From Alphaproteobacteria bacterium (GTDB lineage Bacteria > Pseudomonadota > Alphaproteobacteria > CACIAM-22H2), in assembly GCA_017308135.1 (NCBI GenBank), contig JAFKFM010000013.1:63437-127436 (forward strand): a stretch of DNA of 64,000 bases. Direction: 5' to 3'. How positions within the stretch are numbered: the first letter of the stretch is position 1; each line of letters starts with the position of its first letter. Of this stretch, positions 14,275 to 24,043 are shown piece after piece. The notes beneath the pieces are model-generated. The model saw only the letters and a list, made by a program, of their open reading frames with translations. It ran no database searches and was not told where the DNA came from. A program made the position numbers and the translations under genes.

Positions 14275-14319
14275 ATCGCACCGGACACCGGACCGGTTAC
14301 AGGCTCACGGCGATGTGAA
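14275..14319 (-). promoter_or_regulatory. SigF/ECF16-type promoter (GTAACC-N16-CGAT) with upstream dyad, reading into cusB
   Basis: On the minus strand: TTCACATCGCCGTGAG-CCT-GTAACC-N16-CGAT. It is intergenic, correctly oriented, and one of six copies of this pattern in the window. Confidence 0.6.
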
Positions 14320-14441
14320 AGACCCACTTGAATGGTCATTCGATGCCCCGAAAGCCGATTGATGCCGAGGCCGAACGATTCATGGACGCCTTTCCGAATG
14401 CAAAGTTCATCGATTGGCATGATGATCGGACGGCGGCTGTT

Positions 14442-14711
14442 TCAGCCGTGACGGTCTTTTTGCTTCGGTGCATCTTGCTTGTCGTGACGCTCGTTGCTGG
14501 CCTTCATCATTTGATTGCAGCTTTCCATCATCTGCTGCATTTGGCTCATCATGCCCATCATTCCCTGCATGCCTTGTGAGCCGTTGCCCATCATGGGTTG
14601 ATTGGTTTCCGTCGGCGTCTTCGGTGGCGTGGACGTTTCGTCCGCCTGGACGGCGGCGGAAGCCGCTAACGACGCAATCAATGCGAGCGGGATGAGAGTG
14701 GTGATCTTCAT
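14442..14711 (-). CDS. Small exported Met/Gln-rich protein (putative periplasmic Cu(I)-binding)
   Basis: Signal peptide MKITTLIPLALIASLAASAAVQA. The mature part contains PMMGNGSQGMQGMMGMMSQMQQMMESCNQMM. The start overlaps the upstream gene's stop (ATGA at 14708-14711). Confidence 0.7.
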   Translation of the reverse strand: MKITTLIPLALIASLAASAAVQADETSTPPKTPTETNQPMMGNGSQGMQGMMGMMSQMQQMMESCNQMMKASNERHDKQDAPKQKDRHG

Positions 14712-15058
14712 TTTGTTGCCTTTCTAAAGAATGGCGCGCGTCGGTGGTGAACGCGGGCTGCGGTGCGGTTTGGAGTAGATTGCGACGCTTCGCGTCGCTC
14801 GCATCCCGAGGCATTGTTGCCACGAGAACATAGGTGCAGGGCGCACATGGCCAGACAGGGGAGGACTGGCAGGAGGAATGGCAGGGCACCTGATACCACG
14901 AGCCACCGCCAGTTGAACGCGATTCCGGCAAGCAACGCCGATGCAGCCAAGACCAGCCACAGCGTACGGCTGCGAGAATCAAACGTGCCAAGCATTCGGC
15001 GTTGGACGTCCAACGTTGGCATTAACATGGTCACCGTCGCGTCTTCCCGATCGTTCAT
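14708..15058 (-). CDS. Small two-TM membrane protein, DUF2933-like (LPCxxMC motif)
   Basis: Two hydrophobic helices, the second being FLLPVLPCLAMCALHLC, which resembles DUF2933 proteins seen in metal islands. First gene downstream of the SigF-type promoter at 15114-15139. Start is uncertain (15058, 15028 or 15022). Confidence 0.55.
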   Translation of the reverse strand: MNDREDATVTMLMPTLDVQRRMLGTFDSRSRTLWLVLAASALLAGIAFNWRWLVVSGALPFLLPVLPCLAMCALHLCSRGNNASGCERREASQSTPNRTAARVHHRRAPFFRKATK

Positions 15059-15113
15059 GCACTATGCACCCACGTCTTGGCGCTCACCCTGGAAAGCGAG
15101 CGTCATCTGTTAG

Positions 15114-15158
15114 TTCGGGAAAAGGGTGCGTCCGGTTACAAGCTCACGATCTCGTGAG
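15114..15158 (-). promoter_or_regulatory. SigF/ECF16-type promoter (GTAACC-N16-CGAA) with perfect upstream dyad
   Basis: On the minus strand: CTCACGAGATCGTGAG-CTT-GTAACC-N16-CGAA. The CGAA lies 55 nt upstream of ATG 15058. Confidence 0.7.
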
Positions 15159-15364
15159 ATCAGGCAGCCGACAGGAGTCCATCGGCATCAACGAACCCGA
15201 GGTCAGGTATCGTCTTCGCACTTACGTCCGCCGATGGCACGGCTTCCCGTCTCGAGATGAAGCCGATCTGGAATCCAAACACGCAGCCGATCTTGTCGAG
15301 GGTTCCGCGGGTCGGATTCGCGCCGCCTTCGGGAGTTCCGCGACCTGACGGATGGTCCGTCGAT

Positions 15365-20960: not shown

Positions 20961-21751
20961 TGGGCATCGCGCGATCAACCTATTATGATGCGCCTGCGGC
21001 GCGCACTGGCGATGTCGAGCTGTTGAACGCGATTACCGCGATCTGCGACGAGTTCGAAGCCTATGGCTGGCGCCGCGTGCAGGCGGCGCTTCGCCATCGA
21101 GGCGTGATCGCCAACCACAAGCGGATCAAGCGCCTGATGCGCGAGCACGATCTTCAGCCGCGCCGCCGCAGGCGTTATATCGCCACCACCGACAGCGACC
21201 ATGATCAGCCCATCTTCCCGGATCGTTCGAAGGATATCATCCTTGATGGCCCGGACCAGCTCTGGGTAGCGGACCTGACCTACGTCGCCATCATCGGCGG
21301 CTTTGCCTATGTGGCGATCATCCTCGACGCCTGGTCACGCCGCGTCGTCGGCTATGCGATCGGCAGGTCGATCGACGCGCGGCTCGCGCTCGCGGCGCTG
21401 AAGGTGGCGATCGAGCGACGGCGTCCGCGACCAGGATGCATTCATCATTCGGACCGCGGATCGCAATACGCATCTGGTATCTATCAAGCATTGCTGGCGG
21501 CCCATAACTTAGTCGGCTCGATGAGCCGGCGCGGAAACCCGTACGATAACGCCAAGGCGGAGAGCTTCATGAAGACACTCAAAGTCGAGGCGGTCTATCC
21601 GATGGCATTCGAGACCTTCGACGACATCGCCGAGCAGCTTCCCAGGTTCATCGACGACGTTTACAATCAACGCCGCCTGCATTCCGCGCTCGGCTACATC
21701 AGCCCCGTGCAGTTCGAGGAGCAACATACCCGGCCATGGTCAAATCAGTAG
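20960..21751 (+). CDS. IS3-family transposase OrfB (DDE/rve integrase core)
   Basis: Contains WVADLTYV (first D), [11 protein letters not shown] (second D) and [16 protein letters not shown] (E), the canonical rve catalytic core. Confidence 0.9.
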
Positions 21752-21880
21752 TCTGATTTCTGTCCGGCACCAGGGGCCCACTCCAGTTGTCGTCCAATGG
21801 AGCGTCGAGGCCGAGAACCAGCACCCTGACCTTCCAATTGTTGGAGAGATTACATTGTCCTCTTGAAAGGAGATGAAACA

Positions 21881-22183
21881 ATGGAACTGAATAGAAATCT
21901 GACGACCCGATCTTCTGGCTCTCCGGCGGCCGGCAGAAAGCGAGGTTGGCTCAGTGGATGGAGCGGGCTTGCGGTCTGCGCGGTCGTTTTCGTCGGTGCG
22001 ATCCTTGTGTTCAGTGGCGCGTTCGGCACGCAGAGCGCTGGAAAACTGCTGCCACTGCTGTTCTTGCTGCCGTGTGCAATCATGATGTTGTGCATGAAAA
22101 ATATGGGTGGCAATCAGAACGACACGGGCAGTTCAAATGTCAAAACTGGTGTTCACAAAACCGATTCTGACGACAGACATTGA
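21881..22183 (+). CDS. Small two-TM membrane protein, DUF2933-like (second copy)
   Basis: AAGGAG RBS precedes ATG 21881 (MELNRN). Two TM helices, the second being LLPLLFLLPCAIMMLCM, which parallels 14708..15058. Confidence 0.55.
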   Translation: MELNRNLTTRSSGSPAAGRKRGWLSGWSGLAVCAVVFVGAILVFSGAFGTQSAGKLLPLLFLLPCAIMMLCMKNMGGNQNDTGSSNVKTGVHKTDSDDRH

Positions 22184-22409
22184 CCCTGAGGCTCAGGAAA
22201 AACGTTGCCGGGTAAATTGTGGCTGTCGGTCCGGAGAGAAGGCGTCGTGTCTCGTGAACGCGCGATCCTAGTGTCGTTTGCGACATTACCTTTCCACCCG
22301 ACCGAGTATCAATCATTGCGTAACCAACCTGCGAGAAATTGTTCGCGATTTTATCAGCGCAGAGCATTGAAGCCGCCGTTGCCGGCGATCAGTAGGATAT
22401 CACGGCCAG

Positions 22410-23717
22410 CTATTGACACTTCAAGTGAACGTTTTTGCGACTGCCGATCCCCACGTACCCGCCGTTCTTACCTTTCGTAAGAAAAGTCGGGTCGCTCCAG
22501 GCAAGTACGGTTTTGGAGCGCACTTCAGCATCATCGCTGTCAGCGGTCTCGATCACATCGCTCCCGGAGTGCCCTAAAAATGCGAGCGATCGTGGCTTAT
22601 CGAACGTCTTGGACCAAGACGCGAAGTACGCAATTGCCGTCATTATCGAAAGTCCAGCTACACTGACGAGGATTTGTGCCAACACGGTCTGCGAGCCTGA
22701 CTCCAATACGAAATGGGCCAAGAATGACAGGATAATTCCTGAACAAAAGACATGGAGAGACTGTTCTCCGCATTTGATCAGAGGTTGAAGAATACTGCAT
22801 TGCAAGCCGCTCCAGTTCACGGGCAGAAGCCGTGTCGCCAACAGTGCAATGAACGCAAAATGGATCACGCGGTAAGGAGCGAGGTCGGTCTTGTCATTTG
22901 GATTGAATGCGTCAAAGAGCCATTTTGGAAATTCATTCGCCAGATTCGGGATATGACCGGCCATCGTCATTGCGAATGAAAATAGCAAATAGACGACTCC
23001 AACATAAAGAAGACTTCGTGAACGAATGAGACGGCGTGATCGCTTTGCGCCGCCCACAGCAAACCATGCGCCAAGAACGAACAGCAGCTGCCACGTAAAG
23101 GGATTGAAATACCATGCTCCTTCGGGGTAGGCGGACAAATTCCAGCCGAAATGTCGCGCAGCGAGGTAGAGATACAATGATCCCAACATCGTAGCATCGG
23201 GCAACCGCAACATGAGCCATAAAATTGGCAAGATACCTGCCAAAAGGACAATGTAGAGGGGGAGAACGTCCATGTTAAGGGGCTTGAAACGGAGGAGCAA
23301 GCCCTGGGTAAGGACGTCGAAAGGGTTGCTCACCAAACCGGCAATATTGAATTCATTTATGAGCGTAGGATTATCGTAACTTTGTGCGATATGGCCGATC
23401 ATGGCCGCATACAACACAAACAAGAAAATGTGAGCGACGTAAAGCTGCCAGACGCGCTTCATCAACCAGGACATTCCCGCAACAAAGCCGCGCCGCCGCA
23501 TAATATTCGTGCAAACCAGCGATGTCATATATCCTGACATAAAGATGAAAAGCTCAGCCGCGTCACTGAAGCCGTAGTTTCTGATCGTGATCCACGCGAC
23601 AACGTTGTTTGGAATATGATCAAGAAAGATCGCCCAGTTAGCGATGCCGCGAAACAGATCAAGACGATGATCGCGTCCGCTGATTGGAAGAGTGTTGTTT
23701 GCCGGCGTGTGTACCAT
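22410..23717 (-). CDS. opgC: OpgC-like membrane acyltransferase, paralogue 2
   Basis: RLDLFRGIANWAIFLDHIPNNVVAWITIRNYGFSDAAELFIFMSGY and collinear similarity with 1596..2813 along the TM region. ATG 23717 (MVHTPANN) has a GGAAG RBS; ATG 23789 is an alternative. Confidence 0.75.
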   Translation of the reverse strand: MVHTPANNTLPISGRDHRLDLFRGIANWAIFLDHIPNNVVAWITIRNYGFSDAAELFIFMSGYMTSLVCTNIMRRRGFVAGMSWLMKRVWQLYVAHIFLFVLYAAMIGHIAQSYDNPTLINEFNIAGLVSNPFDVLTQGLLLRFKPLNMDVLPLYIVLLAGILPILWLMLRLPDATMLGSLYLYLAARHFGWNLSAYPEGAWYFNPFTWQLLFVLGAWFAVGGAKRSRRLIRSRSLLYVGVVYLLFSFAMTMAGHIPNLANEFPKWLFDAFNPNDKTDLAPYRVIHFAFIALLATRLLPVNWSGLQCSILQPLIKCGEQSLHVFCSGIILSFLAHFVLESGSQTVLAQILVSVAGLSIMTAIAYFASWSKTFDKPRSLAFLGHSGSDVIETADSDDAEVRSKTVLAWSDPTFLTKGKNGGYVGIGSRKNVHLKCQ

Positions 23718-23998
23718 TTTAACTTCCGACTGCTTGCGTGCGGTGGCCCTGTTTGCGCTCGAACGACTATTCGAAGAAGCGGAATGCATTTGGAGAACCG
23801 ATGTCGGGGATCCGGGCGCGTTGTGGAGGGATCGTTTTGTAAGTAGGTCGGTGTAGCCCGAAAATTGTGTTTGGCTCGATGACGATAGCCCCGTTGTCCA
23901 GAGTGATAACCTTATGCACCCGCTGTGAAGGCTAACCCTCACGGCGATCTCGCGATGTAGTCTGTCAGCGCGGTGATTTGACAATCCCCACAAGGAAG

Positions 23999-24043
23999 TT
24001 CGAAGAGATCACCGTGTTGGTTACAAGTTCACGCTGATGTGAG
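23999..24043 (-). promoter_or_regulatory. SigF/ECF16-type promoter (GTAACC-N16-CGAA) with upstream dyad, reading into opgC paralogue 2
   Basis: On the minus strand: CTCACATCAGCGTGAA-CTT-GTAACC-N16-CGAA. It is intergenic, with a leader of about 205-275 nt depending on the start codon. Confidence 0.65.

Follow-up and report, generated by a model that had tools for sequence, protein, structure and literature searches.

The stretch of alphaproteobacterial DNA analysed here (64,000 nucleotides; hereafter the window) carries a gene pair for SigF, an extracytoplasmic function (ECF) sigma factor, and its membrane anti-sigma factor NrsF, together with six intergenic SigF-type promoters between 14 and 24 kb. 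All six match GTAACC-N16-CGAW, the published consensus of the ECF16 group, and five of them are adjoined by a 16-bp dyad, YTCAC-N6-GTGAR (14304-14319, 15143-15158, 16602-16617, 17015-17030 and 24028-24043). An earlier note on this DNA, made from the sequence alone, had placed such a dyad 2-3 bp upstream of the -35 box in five of six SigF-type promoters, and all five copies lie where it had located them. In the entire window, YTCAC-N6-GTGAV has 11 strand matches at 7 places, while dinucleotide-preserving shuffles give an expectation of 0.62 and 0 of 100 shuffles reach 11.

The sigF gene (16003..16557, minus strand) encodes an ECF sigma factor of 184 aa with the Pfam domains Sigma70_r2, Sigma70_ECF and Sigma70_r4_2, and nrsF (15365..16006, minus strand) encodes a membrane anti-sigma factor of 213 aa (DUF1109/NrsF; PF06532, E = 3e-60; 2165 homologues). 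As in other ECF16 systems, the two genes are adjacent (16557..15365) and preceded by the promoter motif that they share with their targets (16598). The arrangement thus resembles the canonical ECF16 promoters (Caulobacter sigF, CC3254 and CC2907; B. japonicum ecfF; S. meliloti rpoE7) in both the GTAACC-N16-CGAA core and the sigF-nrsF pair. Published descriptions of these canonical promoters give the two core boxes only and mention no upstream dyad.

Geometry and targets of the dyad-bearing promoters

Read in promoter orientation, each of the five dyads is followed by a gap of 2-3 bp and then by GTAACC-N16-CGA[A/T]; the gap is 3 bp in four promoters and 2 bp in the one with its -35 box at 17033. 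The composite promoter of sigF-nrsF itself (16573..16617, minus strand) has the dyad CTCACGATCTCGTGAG at 16617..16602, 3 bp, the -35 box GTAACC at 16598..16593, N16 and the -10 box CGAA at 16576..16573. On the same strand, a second composite promoter (15114..15158; dyad CTCACGAGATCGTGAG at 15158..15143, -35 at 15139..15134, -10 CGAA at 15117..15114) precedes two small genes, a third (14275..14319; dyad TTCACATCGCCGTGAG at 14319..14304, -35 at 14300..14295, -10 CGAT at 14278..14275) precedes cusB-cusA, and a fourth (23999..24043; dyad CTCACATCAGCGTGAA at 24043..24028, -35 at 24024..24019, -10 CGAA at 24002..23999) precedes a gene of the OpgC family. The fifth, on the plus strand (17015..17058; dyad CTCACATAGTCGTGAC at 17015-17030, 2 bp, -35 at 17033-17038, -10 CGAA at 17055-17058), precedes the gene of a secreted protein of 77 aa. 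The sixth promoter (19548..19573, plus strand), upstream of a PEMT/ICMT-like methyltransferase gene (19850-20500), has the consensus core GTAACC-N16-CGAA and lacks the dyad.

Two dyads, 15143-15158 and 16602-16617, are perfect 7-2-7 palindromes and exact reverse complements of one another; relative to the promoter, they thus differ solely in which way round the central 2 bp lie. When the six promoter regions were aligned, similarity was confined to the dyad, the -35 box and the -10 box. A duplicated cassette or the relic of a mobile element could be ruled out because the flanks are unrelated. On each of these points, i.e. the two palindromes, the unrelated flanks and the dyad-less sixth promoter, the earlier note had been right, and its gene names also stand, with sigF and nrsF borne out by Pfam and cusB and opgC as it had named them. 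The shorter gap at the 17033 promoter, where the dyad lies 1 bp nearer to the -35 box, recurs in every orthologue (L001-L003, L005-L009 and L014 of the comparative set described below), and in a few loci the dyad is 1 bp farther away. Thus, the register tolerates a shift of 1 bp in either direction.

Transcription of B. japonicum ecfF begins 6 bp downstream of the -10 box. By this measure, GTAACC would occupy approximately -31 to -26 and the 14-bp core TCAC...GTGA approximately -49 to -36, which would centre the dyad at approximately -42, or between -41 and -43 when the uncertainty of the start is allowed for.

The genes behind these promoters encode envelope or exported proteins. The cusB (12647-14281) and cusA (9453-12650) genes (together 9453..14281, minus strand) encode the adaptor and the pump of a resistance-nodulation-division (RND) efflux system of the copper/silver type, as judged from Pfam (HlyD_D23) and the annotation of the near-identical N. 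hamburgensis plasmid; the true start of cusB is probably internal to the 12647-14281 open reading frame (ORF). The OpgC-family acyltransferase gene (22410..23993, minus strand; OpgC_C, E = 1.6e-141) behind the 24024 promoter is one of periplasmic glucan modification, and the 77-aa secreted protein (17116..17349, plus strand) behind the 17033 promoter ends in the C-terminal motif Y-[HR]-G-G-P-K and has no Pfam match. The 15139 promoter is followed by two ORF calls on the minus strand, one for a Cys-containing membrane protein of 116 aa (14708-15058) and one for a Met-rich exported protein of 89 aa (14442-14711). Neither of these two genes (14442..15058) has a convincing Pfam family, the match of the 89-aa protein to Thiolase_C_1 being under the Pfam cut-off. 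This protein is very methionine-rich (...MMGNGSQGMQGMMGMMSQMQQMM...) and recalls the periplasmic Met-rich peptide of the Azospira hypochlorite-defence study (PMC4436054); a Cu(I)-binding function could equally be possible.

Two further matches to GTAACC-N16-CGAW, at 20716 (plus strand) and 45346 (minus strand), lie within coding sequence and have no dyad. The former is inside orfA of an IS3-family element (20534-21786; orfA 20610-20960, orfB 20960-21751), which is inserted relative to the N. hamburgensis plasmid, and the latter lies in a P-type ATPase gene, on the antisense strand; chance probably accounts for both. At 25-37 kb, the SigF cluster is flanked by additional modules for metals and metalloids: a MerT/MerP-like pair together with CcdA and thioredoxin; a second MerR accompanied by merT and a merA-like pyridine-nucleotide disulphide oxidoreductase (32438-33877); and arsH/arsC/arsR (33917-36972).

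Conservation and distribution of the dyad

Over most of its length, the 12-25 kb stretch has 96% identity with plasmid 2 of Nitrobacter hamburgensis X14, and its identity with conjugative plasmids of Afipia carboxidovorans OM5 and Rhodopseudomonas sp. BAL398 is 86-88%; the matching plasmids are all heavy-metal islands. In the Afipia and Rhodopseudomonas plasmids, TCAC and GTGA are kept at each orthologous promoter, while N6, the flanks and the spacer between the -35 and -10 boxes have diverged. The methyltransferase promoter has no dyad in any of the compared plasmids, and its orthologues in L001-L004 and L006-L009 likewise lack it. The dyad of the sigF-nrsF promoter is kept in L001-L009 and L014 and that of the OpgC-family promoter in L001, L002 and L008; at 15143-15158, orthologues keep the half-sites and vary in N6 (GAGATC, GAAGGC, GAGAGC, GAGACC). 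The earlier note had named the absence of the dyad from orthologous promoters as an outcome that would refute its proposal. Because the dyad is kept in these alignments, this refutation fails.

For a broader comparison, a scan with an NrsF alignment, with one genome per species, gave 80 loci, which together with the three plasmid regions make 83 nrsF loci; in these and the window there are 180 distinct promoters of the form GTAACC-N16-CGAW. How well they match TCAC......GTGA is bimodally distributed. All eight bases are present in 81 promoters (72 at a single offset and 9 shifted by 1 bp), seven of eight in two, and at most five in the rest, with no enrichment at further offsets among the 180. 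Conversely, 111 of the 130 copies of TCAC-N6-GTGA in the approximately 1 Mb of fetched loci adjoin GTAACC, and 6 of the other 19 adjoin a one- or two-base variant of it. When metagenomes were searched for the dyad followed by N4-GTAACC, 36 of the 81 matches listed have CGA exactly N16 after GTAACC, where approximately 1 is expected by chance. The dyad is found in Nitrobacter, Afipia, Bradyrhizobium, Rhodopseudomonas, Microvirga, Vineibacter and several uncultured lineages.

Grouping the promoters of the 83 loci and the window by their first downstream ORF shows which genes carry the dyad. Genes for secreted proteins with the Y-[HR]-G-G-P-K motif are the commonest (63 promoters with the dyad and 4 without; n=67); they mostly lie directly after nrsF, and another member is found in L045 (6738-7022). 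All 12 cusB promoters of this type have the dyad. By contrast, sigF promoters have it in 12 cases and lack it in 77, the chromosomal ones mostly being without; the 12 include the mobile-island version, to which the window's own promoter belongs, and a Microvirga plasmid. Because of this distribution at sigF, the dyad is not an ECF16-wide element. We conclude, based on four independent lines of evidence, that the dyad is a discrete cis element under selection; the grouping by downstream ORF shows that it marks a subset of the regulon rather than being a general property of ECF16 promoters.

The manner in which the dyad varies also bears on the idea that it acts as a nucleic-acid hairpin, i.e. 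as a terminator or insulator for upstream transcripts or as a cruciform. The two perfect palindromes do fold, at -7.6 to -9.0 kcal/mol, and at chromosomal loci the dyad lies approximately 20 bp past the nrsF stop codon. However, there is no T-run, and three of the five copies in the window fold at only -3.0 to -3.6 kcal/mol. Moreover, it is the sequence and not the pairing that is conserved: among 70 distinct sites, the outer pair is complementary in 20 and the inner pair is non-complementary in 22 (in most of them, the unchanged C faces A, C or T), no variant restores pairing, and the exact register relative to the -35 box would be meaningless for a hairpin. On folding energies, the missing T-run and the absence of compensatory pairs, we rejected an intrinsic terminator or hairpin and regard the chance that the dyad acts in this way as negligible.

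Other known types of element were also rejected. A bipartite Type I restriction-modification target (TCAC-N6-GTGA) was dropped because it leaves the fixed -35 register across genera unexplained. The dyad is not a MerR-type operator, because it lies wholly upstream of the -35 box of promoters with a 16-bp spacer and not within a spacer of 19-20 bp. Neither is it a CRP/FNR class II site, because the half-site order TCAC-N6-GTGA is the reverse of GTGA-N6-TCAC and the sequence is not TTGAT-N4-ATCAA; the comparison of half-site orders, which the earlier note had also made, was otherwise not informative.

Similarity of the dyad to CenR binding sites

CenR is the essential response regulator, an OmpR/PhoB-family member, of the CenK-CenR envelope two-component system of alpha-proteobacteria (PMC9561847, PMC11328730, PMC9275681). 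In S. meliloti, CenR binds an inverted repeat, AGTCAC-N6-GTGACT, centred at approximately -42 at srlA (Bensig et al. 2022, PMC9561847; 2024 follow-up, PMC11328730). This repeat lies directly upstream of the -35 box, partly overlapping it, and is required for activation, as established by gel shift and mutagenesis, and CenR is in the authors' view likely a class II activator (PMC9561847, PMC11328730). The consensus of four S. meliloti sites, AgTCAC--C--cGTgAct, has a conserved C at positions 3 and 6 of the spacer (PMC9561847, PMC11328730). In R. sphaeroides, Lakey et al. 2022 (Table 1; PMC9275681) listed 31 sites that are bound by CenR in chromatin immunoprecipitation (ChIP) and regulated by it, e.g. 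TCACCTCCTCGTGAG, TGACGCGGGCGTGAA and ACACGAGCGCGTGAG; 28 of the 31 are activating, lie directly upstream of the -35 box and are co-directional with transcription, while repressing sites overlap the region from the -35 box to the start.

We built a weight matrix solely from the 31 R. sphaeroides sites (consensus TCACGCAATCGTGAC; maximum 17.9 bits) and applied it to the 180 promoters. Scores above 8 bits were obtained for 73 promoters at offset -18, for 5 each at -17 and -19, and for 0-2 at other offsets, with a background of 0.06% of positions. The five dyads in the window score 12.0-16.0 bits, i.e. 12.0 at cusB-cusA, 13.0 at the OpgC-family gene, 14.4-16.0 at sigF-nrsF, 15.5 at 17015-17030 and 16.0 at 15143-15158. 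On the same matrix, the R. sphaeroides sites from which it was built reach at most 15.0 bits, with a median of 10.9, and the validated site at srlA reaches 12.5. Thus, as scored by a ChIP-derived matrix, the dyads have the T(C/G)AC-N6-GTGA (TGA-N8-TGA) form of a CenR site. The spacer follows the S. meliloti consensus as well, with C at position 3 of N6 in 49 of 72 dyads at SigF promoters and at position 6 in 69 of 72. The dyads also have the position of activated CenR sites in that they end 2-3 bp upstream of GTAACC and have an estimated centre, calculated as above from the B. japonicum ecfF start, near the -42 of srlA. As far as sequence comparison goes, the dyad closely matches the known CenR binding site in both sequence and position.

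The likeness extends to the host order and the targets. The window and S. meliloti share the host order Hyphomicrobiales/Rhizobiales. Table S3 of Lakey et al. includes CenK/CenR homologues of N. hamburgensis, N. winogradskyi and Rp. palustris, the last of which cannot do without cenR (PMC9275681). In R. sphaeroides, 29 of the 31 CenR transcription units are for envelope or exported proteins (PMC9275681), as are the genes behind the dyad-bearing promoters of the window, i.e. CusB/CusA, the Met-rich protein, the small secreted protein and the OpgC membrane acyltransferase. In Caulobacter, CenKR is functionally tied to the synthesis of periplasmic glucans, to which the presence of OpgC among the targets is a parallel. 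Among the alpha-proteobacteria, the Sphingomonadales lack CenR.

There are also differences from the two studied species. The srlA promoter depends on the housekeeping sigma factor, while the core in the window is that of ECF16, GTAACC-N16-CGAA; the srlA repeat partly overlaps the -35 box, while the dyad in the window stops 2-3 bp short of it; and CenR binding is demonstrated at srlA and inferred in the window. The dyad shares with the R. sphaeroides motif TGA-N8-TGA the consensus TCACGCAATCGTGAC, the position upstream of the -35 box and the envelope or exported targets (in R. sphaeroides including msrA, dsbC and ccm genes), but the R. sphaeroides sites are much more degenerate and none has been reported at an ECF16 promoter (PMC9275681). 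Moreover, the R. sphaeroides regulon centres on Tol-Pal, cell-wall enzymes and rpoH1 rather than metal efflux (PMC9275681).

The earlier note had taken the palindrome as a sign of a dimeric DNA-binding protein, either an activator that touches sigma region 4 or the alpha C-terminal domain (alpha-CTD) of RNA polymerase or a repressor that occludes the -35 box. A separate protein within reach of sigma region 4 or alpha appears, from the sequences compared here, to be the best explanation of the dyad, while the argument from palindrome to symmetric dimer is weaker than it had been put. CenR is an OmpR/PhoB-family protein, and in the 2024 work on S. meliloti its repeat is reinterpreted as an imperfect direct repeat, TCA-N8-TGA (PMC11328730), so that binding in tandem, and not as a symmetric dimer, may apply.

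Similarly, the statement that no candidate regulator is encoded beside sigF-nrsF is correct and can be extended to the whole window, but an obvious candidate does exist in CenR, presumably encoded on the host chromosome. Scans of the small and medium ORFs of the window with Pfam and NCBIfam found no regulator to which the dyad could be assigned, with two MerR-family proteins and one ArsR-family protein being the only regulators recognised; the remaining scanned ORFs have no family match or belong to non-regulatory families. These scans, together with PhoB tblastn, also found no response-regulator gene in the window, which is plasmid- or island-like. By tblastn with E. coli PhoB against all fetched loci, almost no OmpR-family genes were found near dyad-bearing promoters. 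All-against-all clustering of the ORFs of 84 loci, which was noisy in this high-G+C DNA, recovered only downstream targets and no gene family that co-occurs with the dyad. The two LuxR-family genes of the near-identical N. hamburgensis plasmid were ruled out as the binder, because they have no counterpart in the window, and an XRE-type ORF that follows two dyad promoters in metagenomes was dropped as not recurrent. The lack of a local regulator and the scarcity of OmpR genes in the loci fit a chromosomal housekeeping regulator.

The same searches bear on a metal-responsive regulator, i.e. a response regulator of the CopR/CusR/CzcR type or another metal sensor that would provide a metal-specific second input. 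All loci are copper or heavy-metal islands with CusBA, P-type ATPases, multicopper oxidase and MerR-family genes, and such a regulator would be at home there. Yet, there is no OmpR-family gene in the window and hardly any in the 83 loci, MerR and ArsR bind other kinds of site, with MerR-type operators lying within the promoter spacer as at 31564, and the dyad is near-maximal on the CenR matrix. The cop and cus boxes that have been published differ in sequence from the dyad. We therefore consider a metal sensor at the dyad distinctly improbable.

The dyad is also found away from SigF promoters. A further copy at 31538..31553 (CTCACGAATGCGTGAC; 14.9 bits on the CenR matrix), which has no adjoining SigF promoter, has a merR-like gene start on one side and the mer operator/PmerT (TTGACCCTGTAGTCGCTACAG) on the other, and ends approximately 10 bp upstream of TTGACC. 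The true MerR-type operator is seen separately at approximately 31564. The same arrangement at a mer operator recurs, with different N6, in Afipia and Reyranella loci (L016 5905, L069 8517 and L082 1013), and a CenR-type input may thus also act at the MerR-controlled promoter or the merR leader. In addition, a dyad-like site at 51312-51326 (TGACGCTAGCGTGAG; 13.6 bits) is intergenic, approximately 60 bp upstream of an AAA_21/AbiEii-like ATPase gene (51386-52900), with no adjoining SigF core.

The copies at mer operators count against the dyad being an extended promoter element that the SigF holoenzyme reads itself, through sigma region 4 and the alpha-CTD and with no extra protein. The fixed register beside the -35 box and the location in the region of UP elements would suit such an element. 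However, the same loci contain SigF-type promoters without the dyad (for sigF, 77 against 12), the dyad is G+C-rich and two-fold symmetric, unlike UP elements, and SigF of the window has no extra domain according to Pfam. Moreover, CenR binds the same dyad at sigma-70 promoters in other alpha-proteobacteria (PMC9561847, PMC9275681). Reading by the holoenzyme without a further protein is thus very improbable.

A proposed model with two inputs at SigF promoters

Based on these comparisons, we suggest, with slightly more confidence than doubt, that CenR or a close OmpR/PhoB paralogue co-activates a subset of SigF promoters via the dyad. That CenR itself would bind the dyad we infer from the likeness of the sites. 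Activation rather than repression is favoured because CenR sites at the same position activate in both studied species and because certain loci keep the dyad beside a degraded -35 box. In three loci of Xanthobacter and Aquabacter (L010, L012 and L065, at approximately 6762-6805), just after nrsF, the dyad is followed by the degenerate -35 box GTGTCC, N16 and an intact CGAA. Judged by sequence, an intact dyad and -10 box around a decayed -35 box is the pattern expected of an activator that compensates for a weak -35 box.

Nevertheless, repression or gating at these promoters is possible because the cores are already consensus. CenR in a negative role, or an unrelated protein with a helix-turn-helix, would in this case bind as a dimeric repressor or gatekeeper that blocks docking of the alpha-CTD or sigma region 4 and keeps consensus promoters silent until a second signal removes it. 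The perfect GTAACC-N16-CGAA cores of the dyad-bearing promoters have no obvious need of an activator, a near-invariant and often perfectly palindromic site resembles a high-affinity operator, and CenR does repress some R. sphaeroides promoters (PMC9275681). But the repressing sites in that species overlap the region from -35 to the start, while the class upstream of the -35 box activates (28 of 31; PMC9275681), the -42 site of S. meliloti is activating (PMC9561847, PMC11328730), the degraded -35 box with an intact dyad in Xanthobacter argues for activation, and no candidate repressor gene travels with the island. We therefore consider a repressor rather unlikely.

Several observations weigh against co-activation by CenR. 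The eight core bases of the dyad are far more invariant (81 perfect copies against two with one mismatch) than in the ChIP sites of R. sphaeroides, which could be a sign of another protein with stricter requirements. For Rp. palustris, the closest relative examined, the CenR sites predicted by Lakey et al. are weak and not the perfect dyad (PMC9275681). Many of the regions that CenR binds in Brucella are shared by a second regulator, EssR, so that CenR is not the sole possible binder. SigF-dependent expression in Caulobacter needs no more than the region from -37 to +37; the dyad is thus no general requirement of ECF16 promoters. Core promoters that already have the perfect consensus are unusual for dependence on an activator and suit a repressor or gate equally well. 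Finally, the location on a copper island could speak for a regulator specific to metals.

In the model that we suggest, phosphorylated CenR, presumably encoded on the host chromosome, would bind the dyad immediately upstream of the -35 box and, from approximately -42, would contact RNA polymerase carrying SigF as a co-activator, as at S. meliloti srlA. The first input would be metal or oxidant stress, releasing SigF from the membrane anti-sigma factor NrsF, and the second the state of the envelope as signalled by CenK-CenR. Dyad-bearing promoters would then fire only when SigF has been released by NrsF and the CenKR pathway is active. In the mobile copper island, sigF-nrsF itself would be under the same dyad control. 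Conjugative copper-resistance islands, by carrying the composite promoter even before their own sigF-nrsF, would join the core envelope circuitry of the recipient host, and the composite promoter would insulate the SigF regulon of the island from host ECF16 paralogues with the same -35/-10 consensus. In other words, we speculate, without yet giving this the better half of our credence, that CenR may be hard-wired at single promoters to region 4 of an ECF16 sigma factor, and not of sigma-70, as a two-input AND gate through which the islands plug into the envelope circuitry of their Nitrobacteraceae hosts while their SigF regulon stays insulated.

Promoters that integrate two signals in this manner have precedents. 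At E. coli degP (sigma-E and CpxR) and P. aeruginosa algD (AlgU and AlgR), ECF-dependent envelope promoters have a response regulator bound upstream. These systems differ from the window in sigma group, regulator and geometry; neither is known to have a single dyad that abuts the -35 box, and their arrangement is not known to be repeated across a subset of a regulon. Thus, ECF16 promoters and the CenR box are already known, as is, in general terms, the joint control of an ECF promoter by a response regulator of the envelope. What appears to be new is the fusion of an ECF16 promoter and a CenR box in fixed register, across a conserved subset of the regulon and on mobile copper islands. The earlier note had known of no description of the element for ECF16 promoters, and in the searchable literature library there is indeed no paper that treats CenR together with NrsF, ECF16 or DUF1109; the motif itself, by contrast, has been described as the CenR site (PMC9561847, PMC11328730, PMC9275681).

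Pairs of ECF sigma and anti-sigma factors are usually treated as self-contained switches with one input. If the model is correct, a large, conserved subset of ECF16 promoters in soil alpha-proteobacteria would have a second, equally conserved input site with the sequence and position of a CenR box, and the CenKR regulon, which so far comprises Tol-Pal, cell-wall and envelope genes, would extend to copper efflux and the modification of periplasmic glucans. The short, well-defined 16-mer and promoters make the idea directly testable, and the system would be an experimentally easy model of a response regulator that partners an ECF sigma factor. The model would also help to explain how several Bradyrhizobium ECF16 paralogues with identical core promoters can coexist without cross-talk, and it would show mobile metal-resistance islands recruiting an essential regulator of their host.

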